64,000 bases of DNA from an uncultured Bacteroidales bacterium (GTDB lineage Bacteria; Bacteroidota; Bacteroidia; Bacteroidales; UBA11471): contig CALUZW010000005.1 in assembly GCA_944325415.1 (NCBI GenBank), positions 22,500 through 86,499 on the forward strand. Reading direction: 5' to 3'. Position numbers and translations under genes: made by a program. Positions 12,687-41,764 of the stretch are shown piece by piece. The notes under the pieces were generated by a model that saw only the letters and a list, made by a program, of their open reading frames with translations, did not search any database and was not told where the DNA came from. The first letter of the stretch is position 1, and each line of letters opens with the position of its first letter.

Positions 12687-14081
12687 ATGACACGACTCAC
12701 CTATTTTCTGACAGCTGTCGGGCTACTACTTGCCATGCTTCCGGGTATTGCAGCAAACGATGCCGAACGAATGGCCAAACGCGACGCCATATTGGCCCAA
12801 ATCACCGGTGCCGCGATGCCGCAGAAAGAGTTAAAAATCACATCATTCGGTGCCAAAGGCGATGGAAAGAAAGACTGTAAGCCGGCCTTCGACAAGGCCA
12901 TGAAACGGGCCGCCCGGGAAGGGGGTGCCCGCATCGTCGTTCCGGCAGGAGAATACCTGCTCAACGGACCCATACATTTTGTAAGCAACGTGTGTCTCGA
13001 ACTGCAAGATGGGGCAACCCTGAAATTTTCGCCCGAGCCCCGTTACTACCTGCCTTTGGTAAAAACCAGCTGGGAAGGGACATTTCTGCAAAATTACAGT
13101 CCGTTTATCTACGGCTATCAACTCGAAAACGTATCTATCGTAGGCAAAGGCACCATCGACGGAAACGCCGCAACCACCTTCTCCACCTGGAAAAGCCGGC
13201 AAAAGAAAGGTCAGCAGTTGAGCCGCGACATGAACCACCGCGAGACACCGGTCGAGGAGCGCAACTTCGGCGAGGGGTTCTATCTGCGCCCGCAACTGAT
13301 ACAGTTTTTCGACTGCAAGAACATTACCATCGAAGGTGTATTCATTACCAACGCTCCCTTTTGGTGCATTCACCTGCTGAAATCGGAGAACATCATCTGC
13401 CGGGGTATCCGCTACGATGCCAAACTGGTAAACAATGACGGTATCGACCCCGAATACAGCCGCAACCTGCTCATCGAAAATATCGAATTCAATAACGGCG
13501 ATGACAACGTGGCCATAAAATGCGGACGCGACAACGACGGCTGGACGACCAACCGCCCCTCGGAAAACATCATCATTCGCAACTGTAAATTCAAAGGCCT
13601 TCACGGCGTGGTGCTTGGCAGCGAAATGTCGTCGGGTATACAAAACGTCTTTATCGAAAACTGCACCTACGGGGGCTACTGCAAACGGGGTATCTACATG
13701 AAGACCAACCCCGACCGCGGCGGATTCATACGCCACATATATGTCAACAACTGCACCTTCGGCCAGGTAGAAGACCTGTTCTACATCACCTCCATGTATG
13801 CCGGTGAGGGTATGGACAACAATCACTATACCGAAGTATCCGATATTTATGTAAAAGACCTGCGCTGCCAGTCGGCATCGGCTGCCGCACTGGTGCTGCA
13901 AGGCACTACGACCAAACCCATACGCAACGTATATTTCGAAAACGTGAATGTCGACAAGGCCGGCATCGGGCTGAGTTTCTCTAATACCGAATTTATCAGC
14001 ATCAAGAATTGCAACCTGGGCGGCTACGCCGGTGTACCCACAACCATCAGCGACAAAGACAAGATTTTCGACAAAGACTGA
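12687..14081 (+). CDS. GH28 family glycoside hydrolase (second, divergent copy)
   Basis: 464-aa ORF with a signal peptide. Signatures NNDGIDPEYSRN, NNGDDNVAIKCGRD and KGLHGVVLGSEMSSG. Confidence 0.9.
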   Translation: MTRLTYFLTAVGLLLAMLPGIAANDAERMAKRDAILAQITGAAMPQKELKITSFGAKGDGKKDCKPAFDKAMKRAAREGGARIVVPAGEYLLNGPIHFVSNVCLELQDGATLKFSPEPRYYLPLVKTSWEGTFLQNYSPFIYGYQLENVSIVGKGTIDGNAATTFSTWKSRQKKGQQLSRDMNHRETPVEERNFGEGFYLRPQLIQFFDCKNITIEGVFITNAPFWCIHLLKSENIICRGIRYDAKLVNNDGIDPEYSRNLLIENIEFNNGDDNVAIKCGRDNDGWTTNRPSENIIIRNCKFKGLHGVVLGSEMSSGIQNVFIENCTYGGYCKRGIYMKTNPDRGGFIRHIYVNNCTFGQVEDLFYITSMYAGEGMDNNHYTEVSDIYVKDLRCQSASAAALVLQGTTTKPIRNVYFENVNVDKAGIGLSFSNTEFISIKNCNLGGYAGVPTTISDKDKIFDKD

Positions 14082-14151
14082 ACGGGCCCGATACGCCCGA
14101 CCGAAGCCGGCAAAAAAACGTCTCCTCGCGTGCGAGGGAGACAGTCCATAT

Positions 14152-14189
14152 AAAAGCGGGCGGTGCCATGACAGGCACCGCCCGCTTTT
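14152..14189. terminator. bidirectional hairpin between convergent genes
   Basis: Perfect 16-bp stem aaaagcgggcggtgcc / ggcaccgcccgctttt, with A/T runs on both sides. Confidence 0.75.
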
Positions 14190-14213
14190 GTTCACAATAC
14201 CGATGGCAATCGC

Positions 14214-14714
14214 TCAATAGAGCGTGCGGGAAAGAACGGTCGCAAGCCGTTCGAGATAACAACGGTCGGTATCGTCGAAGGTGGCATAATGCTCGCTGTC
14301 GATGTCGAGCACACAACGCACCTCGCGCTTCTCTCCGGTAGAGAAAACGGGCACGACAATCTCGGAACGCGACAGCGAACTGCACGCGATATGTCCCGGA
14401 AACTGCTCGACGTCGGGCACGACAACCGTCTGCCCTTGCGCCCAGGCCGTACCGCACACCCCACGACCGTATTTTATACGATAGCAGGCCACACTTCCCT
14501 GGAACGGACCCAGCACAAGCTCTTCGCCCTTTACCCGATAGAAGCCGACCCAGAAAAAGCCGAATGCCTCGTGCAACGCCGCCGAAGCATTGGCCATGAC
14601 ACTTATCTCGTCGTCGACACCCTCGACCAGCGCCTCAAACTGCCGGAGAAACGCTTCGTAACGCTCGGCCTTAGTCAACTCCGAGGGTAATACAAAACTC
14701 TGTTCCATAATCAA
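14214..14714 (-). CDS. msrC: GAF-domain protein, free methionine-(R)-sulfoxide reductase type
   Basis: 166-aa ORF. WVGFY, GPFQG...AC..I..GRGVCGTAW and DID blocks are typical of the YebR/fRMsr GAF family. Confidence 0.75.
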   Translation of the reverse strand: MIMEQSFVLPSELTKAERYEAFLRQFEALVEGVDDEISVMANASAALHEAFGFFWVGFYRVKGEELVLGPFQGSVACYRIKYGRGVCGTAWAQGQTVVVPDVEQFPGHIACSSLSRSEIVVPVFSTGEKREVRCVLDIDSEHYATFDDTDRCYLERLATVLSRTLY

Positions 14715-14785
14715 AGTACATAAGAATTCGACTTCAAAATTACAACAAAACTTTCATATCAGCGCCCTCGGCTATTTGACAACCC

Positions 14786-16138
14786 TCAATCGCCATAGTC
14801 GTCGAGGCGGCCGCTCCATAAATATTTTCGGGTTTCGGAGGCGACAACGCCCGATAACAGCAGCAACGAAATCAGATTGGGAATGGCCATGAAGGCGTTC
14901 ATGCCGTCGGCCAAGTTCCACACGATGGAGAGTTGCATCACCGAGCCGAAATAGATGGCCACAATCCACAAGACACGGTAATACTTGATGAGGCGCCTGC
15001 CGCCCAGATATTCGATGGCTTTCTCGGCATAGTAACTCCACCCCAGTATCGTGGAGAAGGCAAAGGTGAGAATACCCACCGTCAATATAAAGGTGCCGAC
15101 CACGGGAATCTTTCCGAAGGCAGCCTTGGTCAATGCGCCGCCCTGCGTGTAATCGATGTCGGGGTGGGCGATGATGCTGCTCACCAGCACCAGTCCGGTG
15201 AGCGCGCAGATAACCACCGTATCCCAAAACGTGCCGGTCGAAGATACCAGCGCCTGCCGCACGGGATTGCGTGTCTGAGCGGCAGCAGCGACAATCGCTG
15301 CCGAACCGAGCCCCGACTCGTTGGAGAAGAGTCCGCGGGCTATGCCATACCGGGCAGCCATCATAACCGTCGTCCCGGCAAAACCGCCACCCGCCGCATG
15401 GGCATTGAAAGCCGAGTCGACAATCAGCCGCAACGATTCGCCCAGATAAGCCGCATTCAGCCACAATATATACACACAGCCCAAGACATAAAACAGTGCC
15501 ATGAAGGGGACCAGCCCCATGCACACACGGGCAATGCCTTTCACGCCAAACACGATAACAAGAGCCACCAGCAGGGCGACAACCACCCCGGTAATGTGGG
15601 GTGAAACGCCGCAAGTCTCCTGCACCAGCAGCGAGATGGAGTTGGCCTGCACCGTATTGCCGATACCAAAAGCGGCTATGGCCGTAAACACGCAGAACAG
15701 TATGGCCAGCCACCGCATGTTCAATCCCCGTTCCAAGGCATACATGGGCCCGCCCAGCATCTCTCCGTCGGGCTTCTTCACCCGGTACTTTATGGCCAAC
15801 AGCCCTTCGGCATACTTGGTCGAGATACCCAGCACACCTGTGAACCAGCACCACAACACAGCACCCGGCCCGCCCAGCGAAACAGCAGTCGCCACGCCGA
15901 TGATATTTCCGGTACCTATGGTCGCGGCCAACGAAGTGGCCAATGCGCCGAACTGGCTGACGTCGCCCTTGGCCTGCTTGTCGGTCGTAACCGACAGGCG
16001 TATGGCCGTCCATATCTTACGTTGGGGGACCCGCAAACGTATGGTCAAAAACAGATGGGTGCCCAGCAGCATTATAATCATGGGCCACCCCCACAACCAT
16101 GTGCTCAGGTCGGCCAGAAAAGCGGTGAGAATATCCAT
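14786..16138 (-). CDS. alanine/glycine:cation symporter (AGCS family)
   Basis: 450-aa polytopic ORF with GDVSQFGALATSLAATIGTGNIIGVATAV and ESGLGSAAI motifs. Confidence 0.9.
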   Translation of the reverse strand: MDILTAFLADLSTWLWGWPMIIMLLGTHLFLTIRLRVPQRKIWTAIRLSVTTDKQAKGDVSQFGALATSLAATIGTGNIIGVATAVSLGGPGAVLWCWFTGVLGISTKYAEGLLAIKYRVKKPDGEMLGGPMYALERGLNMRWLAILFCVFTAIAAFGIGNTVQANSISLLVQETCGVSPHITGVVVALLVALVIVFGVKGIARVCMGLVPFMALFYVLGCVYILWLNAAYLGESLRLIVDSAFNAHAAGGGFAGTTVMMAARYGIARGLFSNESGLGSAAIVAAAAQTRNPVRQALVSSTGTFWDTVVICALTGLVLVSSIIAHPDIDYTQGGALTKAAFGKIPVVGTFILTVGILTFAFSTILGWSYYAEKAIEYLGGRRLIKYYRVLWIVAIYFGSVMQLSIVWNLADGMNAFMAIPNLISLLLLSGVVASETRKYLWSGRLDDYGD

Positions 16139-16388
16139 TATACTCCGATTCGGTTCTATTTCAGCCCGCGAAGATACATATTTTTAAGAAAATTCTTACA
16201 AAAAGCAGAATAAATCCACTTTTTTTCTATCCTTTACCACGTTTTATCCCAAGAAATCCATCAAAAAGACAGTACAACAAAATACTTCAAACTCTTTGCT
16301 ACGGGGAAAACGGCACTGAAACAGGAAAACAGAGATACGACAAATCTCCGCTCTCGGCCCGGAGATGCGCTCCCGATCCGGTACGATG

Positions 16389-16455: not shown

Positions 16456-19260
16456 CTACATGAGTACCTTAATGGTGCGGCTGCCGCACTTCACCAGGTA
16501 GAGCTGTCCGCCGGGAACGGGTATTTCCACACATGTGTCGGAGGCGATTCCACGATATACCAACACGCCGGCGGCGGTATATACGGCAATCGGAGTTCCC
16601 GCATCAGCACGCGCTATTGTCAGGCCACCGGCCGAGGCATATACCCTTACCGCAGCTTCGGCATCGGCTTCCACCTCTTCGCTTCCCGAAAAATCCATCT
16701 CCACTATATGGGAGAAATCTTTCCACTCATAAGCCGACTTATAAGCCTCGACCGTTCCTTGGGGCACATAGAGTGTGCAAACTTGTTTGTCGGTTTCCCC
16801 AAAAGAAAAGTTACATTCGGGCGGATTTATGGCTTGGCAAAATATATTTTTCAAATTGAAGCAATTAGCAAAAGCAAAGGGAGCTATCATCTTCACTCCG
16901 TCGGGAATAGTGATGGAGGCAAGGTGACGACAACCGGAAAAAGCGTGTTGGTCTATCTCCGTCACCTCATCGGGAATAGCGATGGAATCGAGGCTGCGGC
17001 AATCGTAAAAAGTCCACTCGTCTATCTTCGACAATCCGCTGCCAAGCGATACCGTTGCAAGGTTGCCGCATTGGTAAAAAGCACAGCGGCCTATCTCCGT
17101 CACCCCGGCGGGAATAGAGACGGAGGCAAGACGGCTGCAACCGCTAAAAGCACTTTCGCCTATCATCGTCAACCTGCCAGGAATAGCTATGGAGTCAAGG
17201 CTGGTGCAATCGGAAAACGCCCACTCGCCTATCGACGTCAACCCACTACCAAACGAAACCTTCTCAAGACTGCTGCAATCGGAAAAAGCATTCTTGCCTA
17301 TCGTCGTCAATCTGTCACCAAGCAACACTGTCGTAAGACCACTACAATAGGAAAACGCCCCTGTGCCTATCTCCGTCACCCCATCGGGAATAGCGATGGA
17401 ATCGAGGCTGCGGCAAGCAGAAAAGGCCCCCTCGCCTATCGACTCCAATCCGGCGGGAAACAATACCGCCGTAAGGTCAAAACATTGATAAAAAGCTTCA
17501 TCGTCAATCGACGTTATCCCGTCAGGAATAGCAATAGAGGCAAGGCGGGTGCATTTGTAAAAAGCTTTCTCGCCTATCGATGTCGCTCCACTACCAAGCG
17601 ATACCGTCATAAGGTCGCCACATCGGTGAGAAGTACTGTTGCCTGCCGTTCCACAACGAAGCGATACCGTTTCGAGGCGCCCATTACAAAAAAAAGCCTC
17701 ATCACCTATCGACGTCAACCCGGCGGGAAGCGATACCTTGGTAAGATTATCACAATAGGAAAACGCCCCTGCACCTATTGTCGTTATCCCATCGGGAATA
17801 GCGATGGAATCAAGACGGGTACAACCGGAAAACGCCCCTGCACCTATCGTCGTTATCCCATCAGGAATAGAGATGGAGTCAAGGCCGCTATCGGAAAAAA
17901 CGCCTTTTTCTAACGCCGTCAAGCCGTCAGGAAGCAATACCGTCGTAAGGCTACGGCAACCGGAAAAAGCATAGTCTTCTATCGAAGTGACTCCGTCGGG
18001 AATATTAATCGACGTAAGGCCGATGCAATACCAAAAAGCGCTACTGCCAATCGTCGTCACCTCATCGGGTATATCAATAGAGACAAGGCTGCTGCATTCT
18101 GCAAAGACTCTTCTGTCTATCATCGTCAACCCTTTGGGTAGGGCGACAGAGACGAGACCGCTGCAACCCCTAAAAGCATTGTCTTCTATCGAAGTGACTC
18201 CGTCGGGAATATTAATCGATGTAAGGCCACGGCAACCCCAAAAAGCGCCATCGCCTATCGTCGTCACCTCGCCGGGTATATCAATGGAGGCAAGGCTGCT
18301 GCAATCGGAAAAGACTTTGCTGTCTATCAACTTTAACCCTCTGGGAAGTGTGACAGAGACGAGACCGCTACAACCTGAAAAAGCATTGTCTTCTATCGAA
18401 GCAACTCCGTCGGGAATAGCAATAGTGGCAAGACCGCAACCGGAAAAAGCGCTACGCCCTATCGTCGTCACCTCGCCGGGTATATCAATGGAGGCAAGAC
18501 GGCTGCAACCGAAAAAAGTTGAGTCGTTTATTGACTCCAACCCGCCGGGAAGTGTAACAGAGACGAGACCACTGCAACCGGAAAAAGCGCTGCGGCCTAT
18601 CGTTGTCACCTCATCGGGAATAGCAATAGTGGCAAGGCCGCAATCGGAAAAAGTAGAGTCGTTTATTGACTTCAACCCACCAGGAAGTGAGACAGAAACG
18701 AGACCACTACAACCAGAAAACGTGTTGTCGCTTATCGAAGTGACTCCATCGGGAATAGCAATAGTAGAAAGGCTGCTGCAACCGGAAAAAGCGCTACGGC
18801 CTATCGACGTCAACCCGCGGCCAAGCGATACCGTCGTAAGGCCGCTGCAACCGGAAAAGGCATAGTTGCCTATCGTCGTCACCTGGTCGGGAATAGTGAC
18901 AGAGAGGAGACCGTTGCAACCGTAAAAAGCACTACTGCCTATCGACTCCAATCCGGCAGGGAGTGTTATCGAGGCAAGATCGCTGCAACCGGTAAAAGCG
19001 CCCAGTCCTATCGCCGTCACCGTATAGGTCGTGCCATTGTAGCTCACCGTATCGGGGACTACGATGTCTCCCACGTAATTCCATAACGACACTGCCACGG
19101 TTCTCTCACTCTCGGAGAGAACTTCATAATAGATGCCATCAACACCGAAATCGTATGCATGAACGTTGGGTACCACGCAAAAAGCTACAAACAGAAACAA
19201 AATCTTAATCAGTCTCCTTCTCATCATCGTTCTATTTTTAACTCTACTTATCCATCTCAT
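16456..19260 (-). CDS. BspA-type leucine-rich-repeat surface protein with T9SS C-terminal sorting domain
   Basis: 934-aa ORF with ~30 tandem ~23-aa LRR units (..IP.GVT.IG..AF.GC..L.S..). The C-terminal ~75 aa (AAVRVYASAGGLTIARADAGTPIAVYTAAGVLVY...LYLVKCGSRTIKVLM) look like a type-A T9SS CTD. The promoter box at 19265-19272 suggests the true start may be M12 (19227). Confidence 0.9.
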   Translation of the reverse strand: MRWISRVKNRTMMRRRLIKILFLFVAFCVVPNVHAYDFGVDGIYYEVLSESERTVAVSLWNYVGDIVVPDTVSYNGTTYTVTAIGLGAFTGCSDLASITLPAGLESIGSSAFYGCNGLLSVTIPDQVTTIGNYAFSGCSGLTTVSLGRGLTSIGRSAFSGCSSLSTIAIPDGVTSISDNTFSGCSGLVSVSLPGGLKSINDSTFSDCGLATIAIPDEVTTIGRSAFSGCSGLVSVTLPGGLESINDSTFFGCSRLASIDIPGEVTTIGRSAFSGCGLATIAIPDGVASIEDNAFSGCSGLVSVTLPRGLKLIDSKVFSDCSSLASIDIPGEVTTIGDGAFWGCRGLTSINIPDGVTSIEDNAFRGCSGLVSVALPKGLTMIDRRVFAECSSLVSIDIPDEVTTIGSSAFWYCIGLTSINIPDGVTSIEDYAFSGCRSLTTVLLPDGLTALEKGVFSDSGLDSISIPDGITTIGAGAFSGCTRLDSIAIPDGITTIGAGAFSYCDNLTKVSLPAGLTSIGDEAFFCNGRLETVSLRCGTAGNSTSHRCGDLMTVSLGSGATSIGEKAFYKCTRLASIAIPDGITSIDDEAFYQCFDLTAVLFPAGLESIGEGAFSACRSLDSIAIPDGVTEIGTGAFSYCSGLTTVLLGDRLTTIGKNAFSDCSSLEKVSFGSGLTSIGEWAFSDCTSLDSIAIPGRLTMIGESAFSGCSRLASVSIPAGVTEIGRCAFYQCGNLATVSLGSGLSKIDEWTFYDCRSLDSIAIPDEVTEIDQHAFSGCRHLASITIPDGVKMIAPFAFANCFNLKNIFCQAINPPECNFSFGETDKQVCTLYVPQGTVEAYKSAYEWKDFSHIVEMDFSGSEEVEADAEAAVRVYASAGGLTIARADAGTPIAVYTAAGVLVYRGIASDTCVEIPVPGGQLYLVKCGSRTIKVLM
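16863..19083 (-). repeat. intragenic tandem repeat array (69-bp LRR unit, 207-bp higher-order unit)
   Basis: Copies of gtcttctatcgaagtgactccgtcgggaat... start at 17974, 18181 and 18388, exactly 207 bp apart. The first ~48 nt of copies 1 and 2 differ at a single base. Confidence 0.85.
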
Positions 19261-19623: not shown

Positions 19624-20241
19624 TTAGTCTTTGGTGAGCGTATATCCTTTGTTTTCTTTTTGCAGCAGGCCTTGATTGACCAACTGCAATATGGCTCTCG
19701 ACAGGGAGGGGCGAGCTACACCAAGAATAAATGCAGCCTCTTGAAGATTCTGTATGGCGCCGTTTTGCTGTATATAACTTATAATTCTCGACGAGAGCGT
19801 CTGCAAGGCAAACTCGTTCAACCGCTTGCTCAGAAACACACTATGGTCCGATATGACCGTCAAATAATTTCGCAGGACCAAAGAATCTTCTTTGATAATC
19901 CGCAAAATACTCTCCTTGTTTACGATCCAAAGGCTACAATTACTGTTTGCCAGTATTGTAATGGGGAATATTCCTTCGGTGCTGAATATAAAGGAAGAGG
20001 CCAGGACATCGGGTGCCGACAAGGTGTCGAGGGTCAGTTCTTTCCCCTCCTCGCTTATCATCTTGGCATAGACACTGCCTTCGCACAGAATATACAGCGA
20101 ACGGCAGGCACTCCCCTGCACGGCGATGGTATCGCCTTTTTTATACTGGACATACCGGCTGGGAAAGTCGTGCATGATTTTCTCGATGGCATCTTTATTA
20201 CCGCCTTTAAACAAAGGCATTTCATAAATATCATTATTCAT
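19624..20241 (-). CDS. Crp/Fnr family transcriptional regulator
   Basis: 205-aa ORF. N-terminal cNMP-binding beta-barrel (FKGGNKDAIEKI...YKKGDTIAVQGSACRSLYILCEGSV) and C-terminal HTH (QEAAFILGVARPSLSRAILQLVNQGLL). Confidence 0.85.
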   Translation of the reverse strand: MNNDIYEMPLFKGGNKDAIEKIMHDFPSRYVQYKKGDTIAVQGSACRSLYILCEGSVYAKMISEEGKELTLDTLSAPDVLASSFIFSTEGIFPITILANSNCSLWIVNKESILRIIKEDSLVLRNYLTVISDHSVFLSKRLNEFALQTLSSRIISYIQQNGAIQNLQEAAFILGVARPSLSRAILQLVNQGLLQKENKGYTLTKD

Positions 20242-20478: not shown

Positions 20479-22398
20479 ATGAGACATACAATTTATCTCT
20501 TTCTGATAAGTATAATCGTACTCCTTCCTGCATGTGTAAAAGATGATTATCTGGACACTGTTCCCTCTGAGAACGGGTTCACCGGCATTTCGTTCCGGCT
20601 GGTACACGAGGGATATGCCTCGGAAGTACCGAGCGAAGGTTTAAAGAGTGGAGTTCGGGAAGAAGCGGTCATACCCTCTTCGGGCAAAATGACAAGACAA
20701 AGCCTCTCCAACTACGACAAAGTAGAGTTTGTCGTAATCGACGAAGAGGGGTATAAGGTCGAAGGTGTGAAAGGCATCTATGACAAGACTACGTCGAATA
20801 TGCGGTTGGAAGGCCTGCATGAGGGCTCTTACCGCATACTTATTCTGGGCGTGAAAGGCGACATCTCGGCCGACAAAGCGACGATAAACAGAATCGCCCA
20901 TGCATCAGACGTGTGGCTTTCGTTTCCCGCCGAACTGGCCAAACCCCTGGAATGCGAATATTTCTATTCGTCAACCCCGTTTACGGTAAGCAAGGTTTCT
21001 ACCTCGCTCGGGTATGAACTGGTGGCAGAGATTGCCGAGGACGTCGTTCAACGCCGCATAGTGGGGAGAGTGGATTTTGTCTTCTCGTACAATAATCCCT
21101 ATGTAAAAACAGCCCTCACCACAAATACGGTTACATTACACACGAGCCGGTTTTACACGCAGATTTCGGGTGAGGGTACTTTTTCGGGCGAAAGCAATGG
21201 CGAAATGAGAGTTCTGGATATGTCGGGACAGACCGAATATCTATTTATGCCGACGATTGCAGAGAGCCCGATAAAGGGAAGTGCCACCCAAAACACCCGG
21301 GACTATCGGGGACACACGACAAAACGCACCTACACCTTTGAGCTAAACAAGGTCGAGGAAAACCACATCGGCCGCATAGAGATAAACGTTGTACACCCCG
21401 ACGATGAAATGGGAACAATGTTTATTACCGGCCAGGCGTATGCCAAAGGGCAACACGGCTACATTCTGCAAGACGATGAACCGCACACCCTGTATACCGA
21501 CAAGAGTCTCCGCAACTTCAACACATCACGTCCGCTGCAACTCTCTGTAACCAATGATGGGCAGTTGCATGCAAGGTTCTACTCACCGCGCAGCCTCAAC
21601 AACGTTCTGGTAAAAGCGCGCATACCCTCCGTGGGCGACGAATATGTGCATTTAGCCTACTTCGACAGCATTCCGGCTTTTGCCGATTTCTATGAAGAAA
21701 TACCCCTTTTAAAGAAAGAGTTGTACTACCGTTCGGAATCGGGAAGGATTGTCAGAATACCCATGATGCAGGCCGATGATTTTTCGGGAATTGAGTTTGA
21801 AATTGAGTCAGATGATCCCTACCTAGAAAAGTTAAAGGCCATCATTCACGGGTGGAACATACGGTTCGACCTGTATGGAGGCGATCCGACCCGACCCGAT
21901 GGTGGTCCTGTCGGGAACTGGATGGGAATCCGACCCGTACATTGTCGCGAAGCCGTAGCTTTCTTCCTGAACTTTACATACATGATTGACATGCCCGAAC
22001 ACGAAGAGATATTACGGGCAAACGAAGACCGGCTGTATGGTAATGGTGGTGTAACCGACAAGGTTACTGCCGACGTCGTATTGCAACAGATGAGACAAGA
22101 ACGCACACTGAATGTCGGGCTGGTATATCCGGGGAATGGTGTTATCGGACTGGGGGGAGGTTCTGCCTTTGGAGTATATCAATCGGGCTGGCTGAATCAC
22201 TATACCAACACCTATGCCTGCGAAATCATGTTTCATGAGTTGGGGCACGTGATGGGCTACAACCATAGCAGCGCTTTCACTTACGGGCCTTGGGCACAAG
22301 AGCTTATGAACCATTTTTATGTAACGCATCTGAACGACATGCCCATAAACTCGTCCCATTACCTCAACAGCAGTAAAAATCCGACTCTTTATCAGTAA
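20479..22398 (+). CDS. lipoprotein: distant fimbrillin (Mfa2/FimB)-like N-terminal module + C-terminal metzincin-type zinc metallopeptidase
   Basis: Lipobox IIVLLPAC. N-terminal blocks (FVVIDEEGYKV, SYRILILGVKGD, VVQRRIVGRVDFVF) parallel those of the three downstream genes. HELGHVMGYNH at nt 22234-22266 fits HExxHxxGxxH, with a possible Met-turn (QELMN) 15 aa later. Confidence 0.7.
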   Translation: MRHTIYLFLISIIVLLPACVKDDYLDTVPSENGFTGISFRLVHEGYASEVPSEGLKSGVREEAVIPSSGKMTRQSLSNYDKVEFVVIDEEGYKVEGVKGIYDKTTSNMRLEGLHEGSYRILILGVKGDISADKATINRIAHASDVWLSFPAELAKPLECEYFYSSTPFTVSKVSTSLGYELVAEIAEDVVQRRIVGRVDFVFSYNNPYVKTALTTNTVTLHTSRFYTQISGEGTFSGESNGEMRVLDMSGQTEYLFMPTIAESPIKGSATQNTRDYRGHTTKRTYTFELNKVEENHIGRIEINVVHPDDEMGTMFITGQAYAKGQHGYILQDDEPHTLYTDKSLRNFNTSRPLQLSVTNDGQLHARFYSPRSLNNVLVKARIPSVGDEYVHLAYFDSIPAFADFYEEIPLLKKELYYRSESGRIVRIPMMQADDFSGIEFEIESDDPYLEKLKAIIHGWNIRFDLYGGDPTRPDGGPVGNWMGIRPVHCREAVAFFLNFTYMIDMPEHEEILRANEDRLYGNGGVTDKVTADVVLQQMRQERTLNVGLVYPGNGVIGLGGGSAFGVYQSGWLNHYTNTYACEIMFHELGHVMGYNHSSAFTYGPWAQELMNHFYVTHLNDMPINSSHYLNSSKNPTLYQ

Positions 22399-22417: not shown

Positions 22418-24679
22418 ATGAATACAAGAATCTTCAAACTCACACCTGTATTTCTTTTCCTGCTCTGGGGAATAGTGGGGTGTAACGAAAATCTCGATAT
22501 GTTGGAGACTGGAAATGCCCAAATGATAACCGTAAGGTTGTCGCCCGATAATCTGTCGGGAAGCGGCAACGAATCCATCATCAAGAATGTAACCGGTTAT
22601 CGTTTTGTCGACGGCATACTCGAAGAAGTAATCACGCCCTCGCAGACAGGTGGTACAAACCAGTTTGCTTTCGCGCCGGCAACTTTCTCGGGCACGCTAT
22701 ACATATTGTGTAACTCTACATCATTAAAGGGTACCGGAACACTCACTCCCCGATATTCGACCCTCGACGAGTTTCTCGCCATGGAAGGCAGCATCGAAGA
22801 GATGACCGGCGACGGTCTGCTGATGACCGGCAAGACCGATATCGAGAAATCGACCTCTGCCGTCGTGGCGATGACACGAAGCATGGCAAGAGTCGATATC
22901 GAATCTCTCGAAAAGGGCGTACAGGTACAAAAAGTCATCATTCATAATTTGGCCGATAAAGGCTATGTCATGGCCAGAGAAAATGTAGCGACCGCCGCAT
23001 CGGCTGCCAGGTTTGATTTCATAAAAGAGTACGCCGATGCTCCTGTCGAGAACAAAAGCGAGACGCTCCTCTATATTCCCGAACAGACAAGCGATTCGCT
23101 TTTCGTAGAGGTTACCATTACATTCGGTGACGGATTGCACCTGCTTAAAGCAGCGCTCCCGTCGGTGATACGCCGGAACGAGGTTCACACCCTGAAAATT
23201 CACGGGAAGGGTGCCGAAATGCAACTCGTTATCGAAAGTGATGGCTGGGAGGCGGGAACATCGGCCGGGTCGAGCCCATCGATCGAAGGTCTTGTTGATG
23301 TAGAAAACTCCACACTCTCCGATGGAGTGAGGGTGAATGAAACAAGAGACACCGTCTTTGTTCCATATCATGGAAGCGACTTTGTATTGGCACTCATGGC
23401 CGAGGCAAACGCTACCGTAACTATCGACGGCTCGGTAGCCGGCGTAGAAATATCTCATAACGTCAATAAAGAGAGAAGCCTCTTAGAACGAATAGCCGAA
23501 GTTTCCGTCAGCAGCCGCCGGCGTATGCCCGGCCGGACGGCTGAAAGAATCCATTTGGACATCTATGGCAACGATGCAACCAATCTCGGTAGAGTCGTGC
23601 TTATTATCGAGTCCAACCCGATAGAGGTAGACGGGGCCATTCGTTTTGACGACAACGCAATGTGCGATTTCAAGCAATACATCGACGGAGAGCTGGGTAT
23701 CATCACGCTCCCGCCCCACAAGATACTCCACGTAGAATTTGATGCCGATGAATCGGCATGGCTGAAAGCTGCCGAAACAGCCTCCGAAGCGATTGATCCG
23801 GCAGACATGCCAGGCAAGAGATACCGTATTGTCAGTGGATGGAAACCCAACGACCCCAAAGCTGACGGACGGATTCAAGAGGGCCGGCTAATCATTTCGG
23901 ACGAAGATGGAAGCAACGAAGAGACCTATACCGTGCGAAGGATAAACTGGGGGTTACCCGTAGTGAAGATAGGTGAAACATGGTGGTGCAAATACAACTT
24001 GCGGGGAGATGTAAAATCTTTTGAAGACCAGATAACAATCCCCAACGACCCGGCACCTCATCACGACCTGCTTTCTTACCTGACGACCGTAGCCGACGAT
24101 GAGCTCCTGGAAATATTGGGCGATCAATATCAAGGCGGGAACAGCCGGGGACTGCCGTTGCGCCACGACGGGACCGCATTTTATCACGAGGGAATGGCCT
24201 CGCAGGCTCAGAACTTCGGGTTGCTCCCCCCGACAGAAATGGCTCCGCAAGGATACCAGATTCCCGACTATGATGATTACCTCGTCTTTTCTAAAAATGG
24301 GAACTTCAACCTTGGAGGCGTAGGCTCACGGACATATCAAAACAGCGCCGGGCAAGATATACGGATTACGATTGTAGAGAGAGATGTCAATTTTCTGGGT
24401 CATAACTATGGAATCATATCGTTCTATGATTTTGAGATAGACGGCTCTCATTACCTCCTTAACGGACTGGGGCACCAGTGGGACACGACACACGGGAATA
24501 TTGCCCGCATGAATCTGCTCCTGGCCACTTATGGGAACAGCAGTCAGACGTGGACAATGGAAGGATATGCAAGCGCCATAAAACCCAATGAAAACTGGAT
24601 TAAGTTTGTAACCAACAATGCCACAAAGACACGACTGATAAGATGCATCAAGACTCCCGTAGAATATATCTACGATTAA
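22418..24679 (+). CDS. lipoprotein: fimbrillin-like N-terminal module + beta-rich middle region + FISUMP/C-type-lectin-like C-terminal domain
   Basis: Lipobox LWGIVGC. Pilin-like blocks are GTLYILCNS, MTRSMARVDI and IRRNEVHTLKI. The C-terminal 250 aa (nt 23927-24676), VVKIGETWWCKYNL...PQGYQIPDYDDYLVF...TRLIRCIK, parallel the Fibrobacter major paralogous domain consensus (kiGnqtWmaeNL...GWrlP..eEw..L...SVRCvk). Confidence 0.7.
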   Translation: MNTRIFKLTPVFLFLLWGIVGCNENLDMLETGNAQMITVRLSPDNLSGSGNESIIKNVTGYRFVDGILEEVITPSQTGGTNQFAFAPATFSGTLYILCNSTSLKGTGTLTPRYSTLDEFLAMEGSIEEMTGDGLLMTGKTDIEKSTSAVVAMTRSMARVDIESLEKGVQVQKVIIHNLADKGYVMARENVATAASAARFDFIKEYADAPVENKSETLLYIPEQTSDSLFVEVTITFGDGLHLLKAALPSVIRRNEVHTLKIHGKGAEMQLVIESDGWEAGTSAGSSPSIEGLVDVENSTLSDGVRVNETRDTVFVPYHGSDFVLALMAEANATVTIDGSVAGVEISHNVNKERSLLERIAEVSVSSRRRMPGRTAERIHLDIYGNDATNLGRVVLIIESNPIEVDGAIRFDDNAMCDFKQYIDGELGIITLPPHKILHVEFDADESAWLKAAETASEAIDPADMPGKRYRIVSGWKPNDPKADGRIQEGRLIISDEDGSNEETYTVRRINWGLPVVKIGETWWCKYNLRGDVKSFEDQITIPNDPAPHHDLLSYLTTVADDELLEILGDQYQGGNSRGLPLRHDGTAFYHEGMASQAQNFGLLPPTEMAPQGYQIPDYDDYLVFSKNGNFNLGGVGSRTYQNSAGQDIRITIVERDVNFLGHNYGIISFYDFEIDGSHYLLNGLGHQWDTTHGNIARMNLLLATYGNSSQTWTMEGYASAIKPNENWIKFVTNNATKTRLIRCIKTPVEYIYD

Positions 24680-24722: not shown

Positions 24723-25628
24723 ATGAAAACAAAACTTTTCTATACCGTATTCGCATCTTTAAGCCTTTTCACATCATGCTCGAAAGATGATGCAACAACC
24801 CCCTCCTTCCCCGATGGAAATGGAGATGGACACAGAACCGTAAAGACTTCCATAACAGAATATGATGGCATCGGGCCGGCCCTGGAAAACGAGAGTATCG
24901 TAACAGATATGCAGGCTTGTATATTTGAGGACGGAAAGATGACCCGTATCTATAACAACCTTGTTCTCTCAGGAAACAGTTTCGACATACAACTCGACAA
25001 ATATGCCGGAACATTGTATGTACTGGCAAATACCCAAGAACAGATTCACCTGGAAGAGTTGAAAAGTCAGGAGATAACGGAGGAAGAGTGGTTAAAGAGA
25101 TGGATGACGGTAAAAAACAATACACCGGTACATTTCTATTCGGGGAGTGTAAATCTGAACCACATGGAGGCCTCACAGACCACACTCCCGGTGAGTCTGA
25201 AAAGAGGGTTTGCCCGTTTCGACCTCCAAATCAGAACCGCGGGTACAGCATCGGTAAGCCGCATTACCTTGAAGAATGCCGCACAATCAGGCACCCTTTT
25301 TTCCGACGGCAGCGCATACACCCCCCAGGAAGTCCCTGTGGGCGACATGAGTGTCTCTTTCGACGCCCCGCTTGCGACAGATACTCCGGCCGTATTCTAT
25401 GCCTATGAACAGGCCAATGAGAATCTTGAAATAAGTGTCGAAGCCGTTATCAACGGGAAGTCTCATACCCTGACAAAAGCGTTTAACGGCGACATCATGC
25501 GCAACACGATTTATACGATAACCGTCCGCCAGGATGTCATCGATGTAACGGTCGAAGTCTCTTTCGACGAATGGGAAGAAGGGCCTGATACCGAACTCGT
25601 GCCCCACACGCTGAGCTCTTCAAATTAA
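24723..25628 (+). CDS. FimB/Mfa2-like fimbrillin-family lipoprotein (module only, 301 aa)
   Basis: Lipobox SLFTSC. Blocks ACIFEDGKMTRIY, GTLYVLANTQ, LPVSLKRGFARFDLQI, RNTIYTITVRQD and FDEWEEGPDTEL align one-to-one with the N-terminal 300 aa of the next gene. Start set at ATG 24723. Confidence 0.7.
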   Translation: MKTKLFYTVFASLSLFTSCSKDDATTPSFPDGNGDGHRTVKTSITEYDGIGPALENESIVTDMQACIFEDGKMTRIYNNLVLSGNSFDIQLDKYAGTLYVLANTQEQIHLEELKSQEITEEEWLKRWMTVKNNTPVHFYSGSVNLNHMEASQTTLPVSLKRGFARFDLQIRTAGTASVSRITLKNAAQSGTLFSDGSAYTPQEVPVGDMSVSFDAPLATDTPAVFYAYEQANENLEISVEAVINGKSHTLTKAFNGDIMRNTIYTITVRQDVIDVTVEVSFDEWEEGPDTELVPHTLSSSN

Positions 25629-25633: not shown

Positions 25634-25650
25634 GCCCCACGGCGTGGGGC
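25634..25650. other. GC-rich intracistronic hairpin after the short fimbrillin-like gene
   Basis: gccccac-ggc-gtggggc (7-bp stem), preceded by a 7-A run and not followed by a T run on the + strand. Confidence 0.5.
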
Positions 25651-25691
25651 GCTTGCAATCTTTGTTACACATAGAAAATGATATGGACATT

Positions 25692-27986
25692 ATGAGAAAA
25701 ATATATTCGGTTTTCTTTCTTACACTTCTGTTACTGACCGGTTTGTCCTGCGACGACCAGTCGCACGGAGAGGGCCTTTTTGAAAACAGCGACAGGATAA
25801 TCTGCACAGAGGTATCGTATCTTTTTTCCGACAACCAGACAGAGGCCGACAGTGAAGACAATATAGAAGAGATCGGCGCCTTTCTTTTTGATGAGGGGAA
25901 ATTTGTAAAAGAATATATCGGGAGCAAACAGGCCCACAGCAAATATGAATTTCGGCTCGATGCCATGAAAGGGAATCTGTATGTTGTGGCCAACGCCTCC
26001 CTTCTCCCCGACTTCGCATCGCCCGCACCGGGACTCTCGGAAGAGGAATGGCGCAAAACCATCATACACTCCACCGATGGAAAAGCCGAAAGGGTATATA
26101 CCGGTGTCGTATCGCTATCCAACCCGTCGGATTATGTAATCCCGGTATCGCTGAAAAGAGTAGCCGCCCGCTTCGATTTGCGAATTGCCGTGGCCGGAAC
26201 GGTCGAAGTAAAAGAGATAACCTTTAAGAATGTAGCGAAGAATGCCTACCTCTTTCCCCAATCAGAGGTCGTCTCGCCCGAAGTGAGAGACACGGCCGAC
26301 ATTGCGCTTGTACCTGAACAGCCGTATCACGATACCGAGCCGGGAATCCTGTATGTGTATGAGCAGCACAATCGAGACTTGAAGGTCGTGTTAAACGCTA
26401 CCATCGAGGGAAAAGAATACTCACTCGAAAGCGATTTGCCCGAAACGATTTCCCGCAATACGGTCTACTCCATCACCCTCCGCAAAGATGTGGTCGACAA
26501 AGAGGTGCAACTCACCGTAGAGGAATGGAAAGACGGCGGAGACACCGCTTTGAAACCGGGAATAGACTCACCCCTTACCATAGACTCGACCCTTGTGGCG
26601 CTACCCCGTAATGTAACGATTGCCCAAGAGGGTACCATGCTCATACTGCCACATCTGGAAACCGATTTCATCGTGGCCATAAAAAGCGACAGCGAATTGG
26701 AGGTCGTGCCAGTAGCCGATGACTTGCTGACCGTAGAACCGGTCTCCGACCCGGAACTCAGCGATAAGGCCGCAAACTCTTTATCGGGCATCAACCTTTT
26801 CAGGATTCGCAAAAAACTCTATGCGCCCAACATGAAAACGGCTGACCTCTTGCTCTATTTCCATCGGAAAGGACTGCATAACTTCTACCCCGAAGACCAC
26901 ATTCACATACGTATGACGGGAAACCCTACAACCAGCGAAGGGGCGTTGGAGTTCGGGACAGATACATATACCCACGATTTCGGCCGCTACATAGACAACG
27001 AGTTCGGTATTTTTACGCTTCCGTCCGAAAAAGAGATGATTGTAGAATTTGAAGAAGGAGAAGATGCCTGGATAAAGATTGAGGCCGAGAGTGATGGCAA
27101 CCGATACCGTGTGTTGGGCGGTTGGCGCCCCAATGACCCCACGGCCAATGGCCGCAAGCAATCGGCCACCCTTGTCATCAGAAACAAAGAAGACAACACC
27201 GACCGGGAAGCCTATACCGTAATACGTCGCAATTACGGCTTGCCGGTAACATGGCTGCATGGTGTGTGGTGGTGCAAATACAATGCCATCAAGAACTCAA
27301 AGAGTTTTGAAGATCAGATACTCTCCTCATCCGACCCGGCCGCACAATCGGGCATGACCCTCTTTCAATATCTCACCTCCTGCTCAGCGGCAGACTTTTT
27401 CGACCTCTGGGGCTGGGCATACCAAGGAGGCAGCGGGCAAGGTATGCAGGTTATCGAACAAGACGGTGTCGTTGTCTTGGAACGATTCACCCGAGACGAA
27501 AAAGTACACATCAACAAATTGGACCCGAAGGCTCTTTCACCCGACGGATACGAGCTGCCCTCGATGGAAGAGATCAACCGGCTGTTCGATGCGACAGACT
27601 ATGTATGGATGATGTATAACGGAACCCACACATTGAAAAATCCGTGGAACGGACATTCACAGATAAAACGTCAGCAACTTCGCAAGAACGACATACCCGT
27701 AGGCACCACGACCGTATCGGATATCATCTATGTTGCCATGTCGAGCCCCGACTATCCCGAACACGAGCCTCTTGTATGGTATGGCCCGGCGGCACAGTGG
27801 AACGATGCCGGCATAATGCATTCGGGGCATTACAACAATATCCTTTTCGGGGTTTACTCCCCCACCGGTGAAGGGTGGTACATGAACGGGGGCATGTCCA
27901 ACCTGTACCTGATGAAAAACGGAGCCAGCAGTTACGACACCCGTATTCTCCGATTCAAGAAGTCGGACGTTGAATACATCTATTGA
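25692..27986 (+). CDS. lipoprotein: fimbrillin-like N-terminal module + beta-rich middle region + FISUMP/C-type-lectin-like C-terminal domain (paralog of 22418-24679)
   Basis: Lipobox LLTGLSC. Pilin-like blocks are AFLFDEGKFVKEY, GNLYVVANAS, IPVSLKRVAARFDLRI, RNTVYSITLRKD and VEEWKDGGDTAL. The C-terminal 257 aa (nt 27213-27983), GLPVTWLHGVWWCKYNAIKNSKSFEDQI...PDGYELPSMEEINRLF...TRILRFKK, are homologous to the C-terminus of 22418-24679. Confidence 0.7.
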   Translation: MRKIYSVFFLTLLLLTGLSCDDQSHGEGLFENSDRIICTEVSYLFSDNQTEADSEDNIEEIGAFLFDEGKFVKEYIGSKQAHSKYEFRLDAMKGNLYVVANASLLPDFASPAPGLSEEEWRKTIIHSTDGKAERVYTGVVSLSNPSDYVIPVSLKRVAARFDLRIAVAGTVEVKEITFKNVAKNAYLFPQSEVVSPEVRDTADIALVPEQPYHDTEPGILYVYEQHNRDLKVVLNATIEGKEYSLESDLPETISRNTVYSITLRKDVVDKEVQLTVEEWKDGGDTALKPGIDSPLTIDSTLVALPRNVTIAQEGTMLILPHLETDFIVAIKSDSELEVVPVADDLLTVEPVSDPELSDKAANSLSGINLFRIRKKLYAPNMKTADLLLYFHRKGLHNFYPEDHIHIRMTGNPTTSEGALEFGTDTYTHDFGRYIDNEFGIFTLPSEKEMIVEFEEGEDAWIKIEAESDGNRYRVLGGWRPNDPTANGRKQSATLVIRNKEDNTDREAYTVIRRNYGLPVTWLHGVWWCKYNAIKNSKSFEDQILSSSDPAAQSGMTLFQYLTSCSAADFFDLWGWAYQGGSGQGMQVIEQDGVVVLERFTRDEKVHINKLDPKALSPDGYELPSMEEINRLFDATDYVWMMYNGTHTLKNPWNGHSQIKRQQLRKNDIPVGTTTVSDIIYVAMSSPDYPEHEPLVWYGPAAQWNDAGIMHSGHYNNILFGVYSPTGEGWYMNGGMSNLYLMKNGASSYDTRILRFKKSDVEYIY

Positions 27987-28065
27987 CACATTCACACCGT
28001 ATGCTTACATCATATACAGAACAGACTGACACATAGCCTCACAATCCTCCGAGGATACCCAATCA

Positions 28066-28101
28066 AGCACTTCGGTAAGCTGGTTACCGGAGTGCTTTTT
28101 T
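28066..28101 (+). terminator. Rho-independent terminator of the lipoprotein cluster
   Basis: agcacttcggtaa / ttaccggagtgct stem (one G-U pair) followed by TTTTTT, 80 nt after the stop at 27986. Confidence 0.7.
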
Positions 28102-28325: not shown

Positions 28326-28781
28326 TTATCTACTTATACTAATTTTAAGGTAAATCATATCTTTCAATTGTTTACCTGCTTCAAAAATCGGATGGTCATA
28401 ATTATCGGTAAAAAAGTTAGGTATCCGGTGTGAATATACAAATCCGCAATTCTTGTAGAAGGATATGGTCATAGGAGAGTCTCCGGTTCCGACAAGCATT
28501 GTATGGCATCGAGATTTATAATATTCCAGAAGAAAGAATATCAACTTTCTCCCATACCCCTGACGCTGGAACTGTGGATAAACAGCAATGTTTTTGATTT
28601 CGTAGACACCTTTGCCTTCTTCGGTTATAACGCATGAAGCTTTAACCTCATTATTATCAGAAAGGACAAACATATCCCCGCGTTCCAAATAACGGTCAAT
28701 CATGGACTCCTGCTCATCAGCAAGGAGTAGTAAATCGAGGTATTGCTTTTTATTGTAAAAGATAGGATATATATCTATCAT
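28326..28781 (-). CDS. GNAT family N-acetyltransferase
   Basis: 151-aa ORF with acetyl-CoA motif A IAVYPQFQRQGYGRKLI. The gene is strikingly A/T-rich compared with its neighbours. Confidence 0.8.
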   Translation of the reverse strand: MIDIYPIFYNKKQYLDLLLLADEQESMIDRYLERGDMFVLSDNNEVKASCVITEEGKGVYEIKNIAVYPQFQRQGYGRKLIFFLLEYYKSRCHTMLVGTGDSPMTISFYKNCGFVYSHRIPNFFTDNYDHPIFEAGKQLKDMIYLKISISR

Positions 28782-28893: not shown

Positions 28894-28979
<86 letters not shown>

Positions 28980-29166: not shown

Positions 29167-29715
29167 ATGATGATATTTTTACAACTCTTTTGGTCTTTTT
29201 TCAAGATTGGCTCGTTTACCATCGGTGGCGGCTATGCCATGGTGCCCATCATAGAGGAGGAGCTGGTGCGGAAAAAAGGGTGGATCGACAGCGCAGAGTT
29301 TATCGATATGCTGGCCCTCTCGCAATCGGCGCCGGGTATTCTGGCCGTGAACATCTCCATCGCCACGGGCTACCGCATCAAGGGGCTTGCCGGTGCGATA
29401 ACGGCCACGCTGGGTACGGTGCTGCCGTCGTTTATCATCATACTGCTCATTGCCATGTTTTTCCAGCGGTTTCAAGACAATGCGGTGGTGGAGCGCATCT
29501 TCAAGGGCATACGTCCGGCCGTGGTGGCACTCATTGCCGCTCCGGTATTCAAACTGGGCAAGTCGGCACGCATCAACCGTTACAATGTATGGATTCCGGT
29601 GGTGGCGGCTCTGCTGATATGGCTGCTCGACTTCTCTCCGATATGGGTGGTACTCATTGCCGGCATCGGCGGCTATCTCTATGGCGTATATAAAAGAAGG
29701 GAGGCACGGAAATGA
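29167..29715 (+). CDS. chrA: chromate transporter (CHR) family protein, short-chain half 1
   Basis: 182-aa hydrophobic ORF. FFKIGSFTIGGGYAMVPIIEEELV..KGWI...F.D.LALSQSAPG is the CHR signature. Confidence 0.85.
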   Translation: MMIFLQLFWSFFKIGSFTIGGGYAMVPIIEEELVRKKGWIDSAEFIDMLALSQSAPGILAVNISIATGYRIKGLAGAITATLGTVLPSFIIILLIAMFFQRFQDNAVVERIFKGIRPAVVALIAAPVFKLGKSARINRYNVWIPVVAALLIWLLDFSPIWVVLIAGIGGYLYGVYKRREARK

Positions 29716-41389: not shown

Positions 41390-41415
41390 GGCGATTTTAT
41401 TTTATAATAAAAAAA

Positions 41416-41764
41416 CAGCAGGACGATAAGCCGGGTTCTGTACTTTCCCGAGAGAAAGTGTCTGTCATTTATCTAGCCTTTGCGTTGCCGCAAAGATCGA
41501 GCGGTTTACCCCCCGGCATGGGACGAGCAGCCCTCATAACGCCGGTGTACATAACCTTGCAACCCATAAGACGTACGGCTCTCTGTGTCGCCACAAAGAC
41601 CGGTAAGCTCTTACCTCACCTTTTCACCCTTACTGCCGAAGCAGCGGTTATTTTCTGTTACGCTACTCTGCCCTCGCGGACAGCTTCCCGTTAAGAAATA
41701 TGGTGCTCTGTGTTGCCCGGACTTTCCTCTCACGTTGCCGCGAGCGACAGACTGTCCTGCTGCT
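41416..41764 (-). ncRNA. rnpB: RNase P RNA (bacterial type A)
   Basis: The minus strand contains GAGGAAAGUCCGGGC (complement of gcccggactttcctc at ~41714-41728), GGUAAGAGCUUACCGG, AGAUAAAUGACAG and ACAGAACCCGGCUUAU. P1 pairs GCAGCAGGAC (5') with GUCCUGCUG (3'). The 5' end falls 7 nt after a -7 box. Confidence 0.9.

Follow-up and report, generated by a model that had tools for sequence, protein, structure and literature searches.

A conserved Bacteroidales operon encoding a pilin-like lipoprotein with a metzincin-type zinc site, a candidate surface protease

We investigated a locus in a 64,000-nucleotide stretch of DNA from an uncultured Bacteroidales bacterium (contig CALUZW010000005.1; the whole stretch is hereafter called the window), in which an open reading frame at 20479-22398 on the forward strand, denoted g1, encodes a 639-amino-acid (aa) protein from an ATG (N-terminus, MRHTIYLFLISIIVLLPAC) and is followed by three genes for fimbrillin-like lipoproteins, g2, g3 and g4. 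The original prediction, made from the letters of the window, described g1 as a pilin-like lipoprotein fused to a metzincin motif, and proposed that it processes the pilin-like products of the genes behind it or, as an alternative, acts as a protease displayed at the cell surface. The fusion proved real, and the displayed surface protease appears to fit the evidence better than maturation.

Domain architecture of g1

The product of g1 combines a lipoprotein signal, a pilin-like module, an Ig-like sandwich and a catalytic domain; AF2 denotes AlphaFold2, and pLDDT and pTM denote its predicted local distance difference test and predicted template modelling scores. The features are:

20479..22398, forward strand: g1, a 639-aa lipoprotein in which a type V pilin-like stalk is joined to an Ig-like β-sandwich and a predicted metzincin-type catalytic domain (open reading frame, homologs, AF2)
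20479..20535, forward strand: signal peptide and lipobox MRHTIYLFLISIIVLLPAC, with Cys19 as the predicted lipidation site (C19 invariance, N-terminal alignment)
20581..21378, forward strand: type V pilin-like module of two β-sandwiches, residues ~35-300, nearest to the Mfa2/FimB anchor class (Foldseek, Pfam Mfa2)
20587..20607, forward strand: β1 strand ISFRLVH, residues 37-43, equivalent of the removable N-terminal strand of pilins (AF2, alignment)
20617..20712, forward strand: flexible β1-β2 loop, residues 47-78, a candidate Arg-specific processing site of g1 itself (pLDDT, Arg conservation)
21463..21486, forward strand: ILQDDEPH segment, residues 329-336, the start of the unit shared with PDB entry 9tpb; a role as latency or linker element is a guess (conservation, start of alignment)
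21511..21813, forward strand: Ig-like β-sandwich, residues ~345-445, which always accompanies the catalytic domain (AF2, weak Foldseek matches, 9tpb/HomA alignment)
21841..22395, forward strand: catalytic domain, residues ~455-639 (AF2, profile against PDB)
22147..22176, forward strand: Gly-rich GLGGGSAFGV hairpin, candidate substrate-binding edge strand (conservation, AF2, serralysin alignment)
22234..22266, forward strand: putative zinc-binding and catalytic motif HELGHVMGYNH, with H586, E587, H590, G593 and H596 (motif, conservation)
22276..22284, forward strand: F600-T601-Y602, at the Met-Thr-Tyr position of the family, candidate Met-turn and Tyr, with Met replaced by Phe (residue tally; Y602 invariant)
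22306..22308, forward strand: M610, the Met-turn candidate of the original prediction, in the C-terminal helix (AF2 helix 603-616)

The motif HELGHVMGYNH spans residues 586-596 (nt 22234-22266), with H586 54 residues from the C-terminus, exactly as first described, and is the sole match to HExxHxxGxxH in a six-frame translation of the whole window (0.009 expected from composition). A search for homologs of g1 found 475 proteins, forming 289 representative clusters; residues were compared in a close alignment of 36 homologs (54-83% identity) and in a diverse alignment of 58 homologs (down to 23% identity). H586, E587, H590, G593, H596, Y602 and M610 are invariant in the close set. Loss of HExxH among homologs, named beforehand as an observation that would count against a protease, was not seen: H586, E587 and H590 are invariant in the diverse set, H596 is found in at least 90% of its members, and HExxH is kept even in the few full-length members that miss the strict HExxHxxGxxH pattern. 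The zinc motif is under selection. The Gly-rich stretch GLGGGSAFGV upstream of the motif, also picked out in the original prediction, occupies residues 557-566, with G557-G561 invariant in the 36 close homologs, and is modelled as a β-hairpin just before the active-site helix.

Two finer points fared less well. M610, in the sequence QELMN, had been put forward as the Met-turn residue, and this is probably wrong: it lies inside a C-terminal helix (residues 603-616) in the AF2 models and does not align with the Met of the family. That Met stands 4 residues past the third His (HxSxMTYG) in distant family members, in 9tpb and in HomA, and its position is taken by Phe600 in the g1 clade (138 F against 63 M among the homologs fetched); in matrix metalloproteinases (MMPs), by comparison, the Met follows the third His by ~8 residues. 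The combination V591/F600/M610 is specific to the clade of the operon. The Ser after the third His, read earlier as a mark of matrixin/serralysin-type sites, falls at a position that varies across the family (S, D, N, A or G). A C591-C610 disulphide of distant members, replaced here by V591/M610, was considered and dropped, covariation being weak and C...C pairs being limited to 3 cases.

The C-terminal half of g1 (residues ~334-639) has no significant match in Pfam or NCBIfam. Among the homologs in the matches listed, 120/120 lacked precomputed Pfam domains, and none of ten homolog clusters looked up carried a source-given name. Below threshold, Pfam Matrixin (PF00413; MEROPS M10A) reached 14.2 bits against a cut-off of 24 with 23 residues aligned, Reprolysin_3 likewise gave a match of motif length, and NCBIfam gave g1 a 14-bit match to the catalytic region of CpaA. 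By Pfam criteria, g1 is not a matrixin. Placement with libraries of hidden Markov models, as originally suggested, thus yielded no match above cut-off in Pfam or NCBIfam, whereas the metzincin type was recovered by the motif and by profile matches to 9tpb and HomA in PDB. In a single-sequence search of PDB with phmmer, residues 334-602 of g1 aligned with residues 55-321 of 9tpb/9tpc (E = 7e-14), a 356-aa chain deposited under the labels 'Metallopeptidase' and 'metzincin', and the family profile matched 9tpb with E = 4e-57 and HomA (9tpy/9tp2) with E = 9e-14. Weaker profile matches below HomA were mostly to metzincins (serralysin, 0.004; MMP-1, 0.04; adamalysins, archaemetzincin and meprin), with a few unrelated chains scattered among them. 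The metzincin alignments span the Gly-containing strand and the zinc motif, and GLGGGSAFGV aligns with the serralysin strand upstream of HEIGH.

AF2 modelled full-length g1 with a pLDDT of 83.9 and a pTM of 0.76, and residues 300-639, from the 58-sequence alignment, with a pLDDT of 96.3 and a pTM of 0.93. In the latter model, an Ig-like sandwich (~345-445), for which Foldseek found weak matches only, to Ig/FN3-like domains, is followed by an α/β domain with a long helix (486-503), strands 543-549, 558-560 and 563-566, the last two forming the GLGGGSAFGV hairpin, a helix carrying HExxH (578-591) and the C-terminal helix (603-616). In the ILQDDEPH segment, I329, L330, D332 and E334 are invariant in the 36 close homologs, and the diverse homologs share the consensus ILxDxEP. 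Judged by sequence, the Ig-like sandwich and the catalytic domain together form a conserved unit of a metzincin-type family that is absent from Pfam and NCBIfam; the unit of g1 is assigned to the family of 9tpb and HomA, and motif and profile mark it as metzincin-like. Conservation and profile matches together bear out the C-terminal metzincin-type zinc site with conserved catalytic residues that had been proposed.

The closest relative of solved structure, 9tpb/9tpc, shares with g1 the sandwich, the catalytic domain, GLGGGSTFG, HExxHxxGYxH and (M)TY, but is only ~25-31% identical to any fetched relative, lacks the pilin-like module, and has NMTY where g1 has FTY. HomA of PDB, which from its name we take to be the Helicobacter pylori Hom-family outer-membrane protein, is a distant member of the same catalytic unit, likewise a surface-displayed globular domain, and its chain carries HEFSHTKGYTHNGNMTY; in contrast to g1, the domain is displayed as an insert in a small β-barrel and its Gly-rich strand is degenerate, although NMTY is kept. 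PDB entry 9tp2 is HomA with AAFSH in place of HEFSH, an HE to AA active-site mutant which implies that the depositors treated the site as catalytic. A literature search found no paper on the 9tpb and HomA entries, on the catalytic family, or on a link between Hom proteins and metzincins. Matrixins and serralysins (MEROPS M10) align with g1 over HExxHxxGxxH and the preceding Gly strand (E of 0.004-0.04), but over ~45 residues, with Pfam at 14 bits against 24, and g1 has neither a matrixin prodomain nor RTX. The glycoprotease CpaA of Acinetobacter (NF033511) and BACON-containing Bacteroides surface metalloproteases such as BT4244 resemble the family in layout, with β-sandwiches ahead of a catalytic domain and the zinc motif close to the C-terminus. 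The catalytic region of CpaA weakly matches 5 family members (E of 0.004-0.01); 15 bits against a 750-bit cut-off, however, do not make these proteins CpaA members. Glycoprotein specificity is only a lead.

The likeness to HomA raises the question of whether g1 is a protease at all, because the metzincin-like domain might be kept as a binding scaffold in a non-catalytic adhesin, in line with the roles in adhesion and biofilm formation given to HomA and HomB in the literature. A 2021 paper on HomA and HomB describes a surface-exposed globular domain with roles in adhesion and inflammation and makes no mention of zinc or of a metallopeptidase, and loss of the Met-turn Met in the g1 clade points in the same direction. 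Nevertheless, we consider such an adhesin very unlikely: the three His and the catalytic Glu are conserved over ~25-100% identity, which is not expected for a pseudoenzyme, 9tpb is labelled a metallopeptidase, and the HE to AA mutant of HomA was made by its own depositors.

The N-terminal half is that of a pilin-like lipoprotein, as the original prediction had it. C19 of the lipobox is invariant in the 36 close homologs and is directly followed by KDD, which may be a surface-export signal, as acidic residues after the lipidated Cys act as one in Bacteroidetes. In the full-length AF2 model, residues 37-43 form a strand, residues 50-72 are a disordered loop (pLDDT <50) and two β-sandwiches extend to ~residue 300; the hydrophobic β1 strand is aligned across homologs in the N-terminal alignment. 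In a Foldseek search of PDB, the top eleven matches were type V pilins with probability 1.0, and more followed lower in the list. These matches include 5nfi, 4h40, 4qdg, 3liu, 3pay, 3t2l and 4k4k (E = 2e-6 to 1e-4), and by name Mfa2 (5nfi), the best match (E = 2.4e-6), BF2867, BT2657 (4qdg), BACOVA_04077 (3pay) and BF1858. In addition, 4 family members match Pfam Mfa2, and some match P_gingi_FimA. The term pilin-like is therefore correct, the best matches being Mfa2 and putative anchors, which makes the anchors the nearest class.

Residues ~35-300 have their best structural matches in the anchors Mfa2/FimB of Porphyromonas gingivalis, BovFim2B (3pay) and BthFim3B (4qdg) (Foldseek E of 2e-6 to 2e-5), and these are likewise lipoprotein precursors of two β-sandwich domains. 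However, they are ~300 aa long with a free C-terminus that ends the pilus, whereas g1 continues for 340 further residues. Its β1-β2 loop, moreover, comprises 32 residues and contains R60 and T72-R73-Q74; Arg is present in this loop in 77/81 g1 homologs, and within 14 residues upstream of the equivalent of Y79 in 77/80. The β1-β2 loop of Mfa2, by comparison, is short and rigid, without a protease site (PMC5789003), and 3pay and 4qdg are putative anchors resembling Mfa2 (Hall et al. 2018, PMC5789003). With its long disordered Arg-containing loop and its long C-terminal extension, g1 departs from the Mfa2/FimB anchors, and the loop and Arg appear to follow the layout of cleavable stalk and tip pilins. 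We infer a surface location for g1 from the pilin-type architecture and from the putative acidic export signal after Cys19.

The operon and its conservation

Downstream of g1, three lipoprotein genes follow on the same strand, bounded by a probable terminator, with a divergent regulator gene upstream:

22418..24679, forward strand: g2, a lipoprotein of 753 aa whose N-terminal module is fimbrillin-like and whose large C-terminal domain is unannotated (hhalign; no Pfam match)
24723..25628, forward strand: g3, a short fimbrillin-like lipoprotein of 301 aa, paralogous to the N-terminal module of g4 (hhalign; sub-threshold Mfa_like_1)
25683..27986, forward strand: g4, a 767-aa lipoprotein and paralog of g2, with a FimD-like N-terminal module and the common C-terminal domain, ending ...PVEYIY (hhalign; NCBIfam)
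19624..20241, reverse strand: divergent Crp/Fnr-family regulator, the probable regulator of the operon (Pfam cNMP_binding, 2e-13, and HTH_Crp_2)
28065..28097, forward strand: terminator-like hairpin of 14 pairs with a T run, 79 nt past the g4 stop, the likely end of the operon (hairpin scan)

The gaps inside the cluster measure 19-54 nt which, together with the hairpin after g4, indicates that the genes form one operon; a scan for sigma-70 promoters carries no information in Bacteroidales. Between g3 and g4, at 25634-25650, there is a perfect GC-rich inverted repeat, GCCCCACGGCGTGGGGC; it was scored as a minus-strand terminator, has no T tail on the plus strand, and may be an internal attenuator or processing site.

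The N-terminal modules of g2 and g4 are homologous to each other and to g3, and the C-terminal parts of g2 and g4 are homologous to each other (hhalign probability 100%). g4 matches NCBIfam FimD_tip_adhes with 3e-7, which is below the cut-off, and Pfam Mfa_like_1 below threshold, and g2 has no family match in Pfam or NCBIfam. A common origin of the g1 N-terminal module with those of the partners was rejected at the level of sequence (hhalign probability at most 2.4%). The C-terminal part of g2 and g4 (~450 aa) has no sequence relative in Pfam or PDB, and its extreme C-terminus (V763, E764, Y765 and Y767 in g4 numbering, within ...PVEYIY) is invariant across both proteins. This domain also contains the invariant elements WW.KYN and GY..P and the end ...R..K..VEYIY and, by eye only, is reminiscent of lectin-like domains of the FISUMP/DUF1566 type.

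A scan of one genome per species retrieved 152 relatives of g1, and the best 80 of these were used for all locus counts. All 80 come from Bacteroidales, among them Barnesiella, Alistipes, Cryptobacteroides, Phocaeicola, Mediterranea, Prevotella, Parabacteroides and Caecibacteroides. In 76/78 loci with enough sequence, g1 is directly followed by a gene of g2 type; g4-type open reading frames are present in 75/80 loci and g3-type ones in 39/80, and a divergent Crp/Fnr-type regulator is found upstream in 60/75. The position of g1 as first gene of a cluster of fimbrillin-like lipoproteins, noted from the window, is thus a general one, the order g1-g2-(g3)-g4 being kept across the 80 relatives. In the reverse direction, a profile of g2/g4 retrieved only 122 proteins, and each of the four most divergent among those on long contigs (33-39% identity) has a g1 homolog directly in front of it (50-54% identity, with HELGHVMGYGH), with other regulators nearby. 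Co-occurrence with fimbrillin genes, which the original prediction had suggested checking, therefore holds in 76/78 loci and in the 4/4 divergent ones, and linkage in both directions implies that g1 and g2/g4 are a strict functional unit.

Pilin maturation and surface proteolysis

Such a unit could be one in which g1 is a dedicated maturation protease that cuts the β1 strand off g2-g4 at acidic, Arg-free loops, so that no Arg protease of the gingipain type would be required for assembly or release of these non-canonical fimbrillin-like partners, much as class C sortases are the pilus-specific processing enzymes of Gram-positive pili. The linkage is tight both ways, in the 76/78 loci and for all sampled divergent g2/g4 relatives; g1 and the substrates proposed for it are all lipoproteins, and the stalk of g1 is similar to anchors, the class retained at the membrane. 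The original prediction had g1 cleaving the products of genes 2-4 after a conserved Arg. In the window, however, the β1-β2 loops of g2 (DNLSGSGNESIIKN), g3 (DGIGPALENESIVTD) and g4 (SDNQTEADSEDNIEE) are acidic and devoid of Arg, and among homologs Arg occurs in 51% of g2, 18% of g3 and 29% of g4 loops, at or below chance for a 15-residue loop, as against 95% for g1. Judged in this way, g2-g4 resemble proteins that stay uncleaved and membrane-retained, and it is g1 that has the look of a processed protein. The missing Arg of the general pathway can also be turned in favour of a dedicated enzyme, because g2-g4, if processed at all, would need a different protease. Bacteroides does carry out Arg-specific cleavage: BfrT is cut at R43, and the reporting preprint names no enzyme.

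The Arg-gingipains RgpA and RgpB resemble g1 only in the job proposed for it, the removal of the N-terminal strand of pilin lipoproteins. They are type IX-secreted cysteine proteases (C25) with P1-Arg specificity, encoded away from pilus operons, whereas g1 is a lipoprotein with a zinc site encoded within the operon, and its partners lack the Arg. Substrate selection by metzincins, for its part, usually relies on the primed side and not on Arg at P1, which also counts against maturation by g1.

A role specific to pilins would further imply that the catalytic module keeps company with pilin genes, and it is not confined to them. It occurs alone, as in 360-aa lipoproteins adjoining unrelated genes or genes for non-pilin lipoproteins; fused to BACON alone, a domain also contained in the Bacteroides surface metalloprotease BT4244; fused to an NHL/PQQ propeller; and in HomA. 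The stand-alone and the BACON- or β-propeller-fused forms lie in loci without detectable pilin genes, and in two such loci (L082 and L084) hhalign found no pilin similarity in the genes downstream of stand-alone homologs. Fusions of pilin type are themselves diverse: FimA-like (P0168, which adjoins a FimA-like gene), FimD-like, Mfa2-like (P0208), and Mfa_like_1 with BACON (P0131). Repeated fusion to differing pilin subtypes, along with non-pilin forms, suggests that the protease module is a general one, displayed at the surface on pilin-like modules as its scaffolds.

Three loci with stand-alone or propeller-fused members (L082, 7026-9117; L083, 3502-5593; L084, 4083-5132) continue with unannotated lipoprotein genes of ~330-360 aa that share a YYYSYE motif near the N-terminus; these lipoproteins are not pilin-like by hhalign, and the protease module may have in them another family of partners. 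Locus L085, a metagenomic contig, contains a FimA-like gene followed by the FimA-like-metzincin fusion P0168 (5305-8265, forward strand) and, nearby, a second g1-like/g2-like pair (13501-16238, reverse strand), so that two pilin-protease arrangements coexist in one genome region.

Taken together, the data argue against g1 as a general pilin-maturation enzyme of Bacteroidales, and it is probably not the missing pilus-maturation enzyme. Dedicated maturation of its own partners is unlikely in our judgement: there is no sign of processing of g2-g4, whose loops lack Arg/Lys conservation as do those of uncleaved anchors, the premise of a conserved Arg fails, and the sequences offer no positive evidence for cleavage.

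In another reading, g1 would itself be the substrate of an Arg-specific protease. It would be processed between R73 and Q74 in T72-R73-Q74 and would take a tip-like place in a short heteromer of type V style. The cut would remove β1 along with the lipid anchor and open a groove, to be filled by the conserved C-terminal tail of an uncleaved, lipid-anchored partner (...PVEYIY of g2/g4, or g3), and the protease would then sit on top of a stalk of one or two subunits. The layout of g1 as a canonical precursor (lipobox, β1, long disordered Arg loop, core strand; Arg in 77/80) agrees with this, as do the Arg-free, anchor-like g2-g4, the invariant extreme C-terminus common to g2 and g4, and the FimA-like or FimD-like (stalk or tip) modules of other family members and the FimA-like genes they adjoin. 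On the other hand, the g1 stalk is structurally nearest to anchors and not to pilins of the tip or stalk type, an Arg can readily turn up by chance in a loop of 14 residues (51% of the g2 family have one), and the tail of g2 and g4 may simply belong to their C-terminal domain. We regard a tip position as doubtful, although it is compatible, and overlaps, with surface proteolysis.

The reading that we favour, with moderate confidence, is that g1 is a surface-displayed zinc protease acting on external substrates. Exported as a lipoprotein, g1 would be displayed at the cell surface on its pilin-like stalk. H586, H590 and H596 would bind zinc, with E587 as the general base, the GLGGGS hairpin would provide the substrate-binding edge, and Y602 would follow the Met-turn position. 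Together with two or three co-transcribed partners, g1 may form one surface module in which g2 and g4, as possibly lectin-like lipoproteins, probably provide target binding, while g1 would act on a protein outside the cell, be it a (glyco)protein from host or diet or one on the surface of another microbe. As a compatible refinement, g1 itself may be cut after R73 by an Arg-specific protease and held by the C-terminal strand of a partner. Several points weigh against this proposal: the strict linkage of g2/g4 with g1 is equally expected of a dedicated processing enzyme; the g1 clade has Phe in place of the Met-turn Met; searchable literature yielded no biochemical data on any family member; and the C-terminal domain of g2/g4 falls in no recognisable family, which makes the binding role a guess.

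A bolder possibility, which we rate as quite unlikely, is a self-contained, gingipain-independent type V-like assembly, in which the pilin-fused metzincin either cuts the g2-g4 loops or is itself a tip mounted by donor strand. If true, a type V pilus-like locus would for the first time be seen to contain the gene of a protease dedicated to it or carried by it.

Gut Bacteroidales abound in type V pili and fimbrillin-like lipoproteins, and the literature consulted names no protease that matures these outside Porphyromonas. The locus described here defines a widespread, strictly linked operon of a putative protease and adhesin-like proteins in Alistipes, Barnesiella, Phocaeicola, Mediterranea, Prevotella and Parabacteroides, with cultivable species among its carriers (Phocaeicola plebeius, Mediterranea massiliensis, Bacteroides ndongoniae and Caecibacteroides pullorum). 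It exposes a candidate surface protease family that is invisible to Pfam and NCBIfam and links this family to the surface domain of HomA in PDB; if that HomA belongs to the H. pylori Hom family, a surface domain regarded as an adhesin would be a metzincin-like domain. Provided that it is active, g1 is a candidate for the cleavage of proteins from host or microbes at the cell surface of common gut commensals.

Genomic surroundings

The GC profile of the window gives no obvious sign of a genomic island. Upstream of the regulator, a gene on the reverse strand (16456-19260) encodes a 934-aa BspA-type leucine-rich repeat surface protein (LRR_5, E = 2e-277, 8 stretches) with a weak C-terminal DUF6383; among the 80 loci, it is found only in a 97%-identical metagenome-assembled genome and is thus not part of the conserved unit. 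Downstream of the operon lie a GNAT acetyltransferase gene (28326-28781, reverse strand), a tRNA-Ser (TGA) gene (28894-28979, reverse strand; ~900 nt downstream of the operon), and two overlapping half-size Chromate_transp genes of 182 aa each (29167-29715 and 29712-30260, forward strand), followed by a Mur-ligase-type gene (Mur_ligase_M, Mur_ligase_C), possibly FolC. Farther along, the window contains a bacterial class A RNase P RNA (41411-41763, reverse strand; 247 bits).

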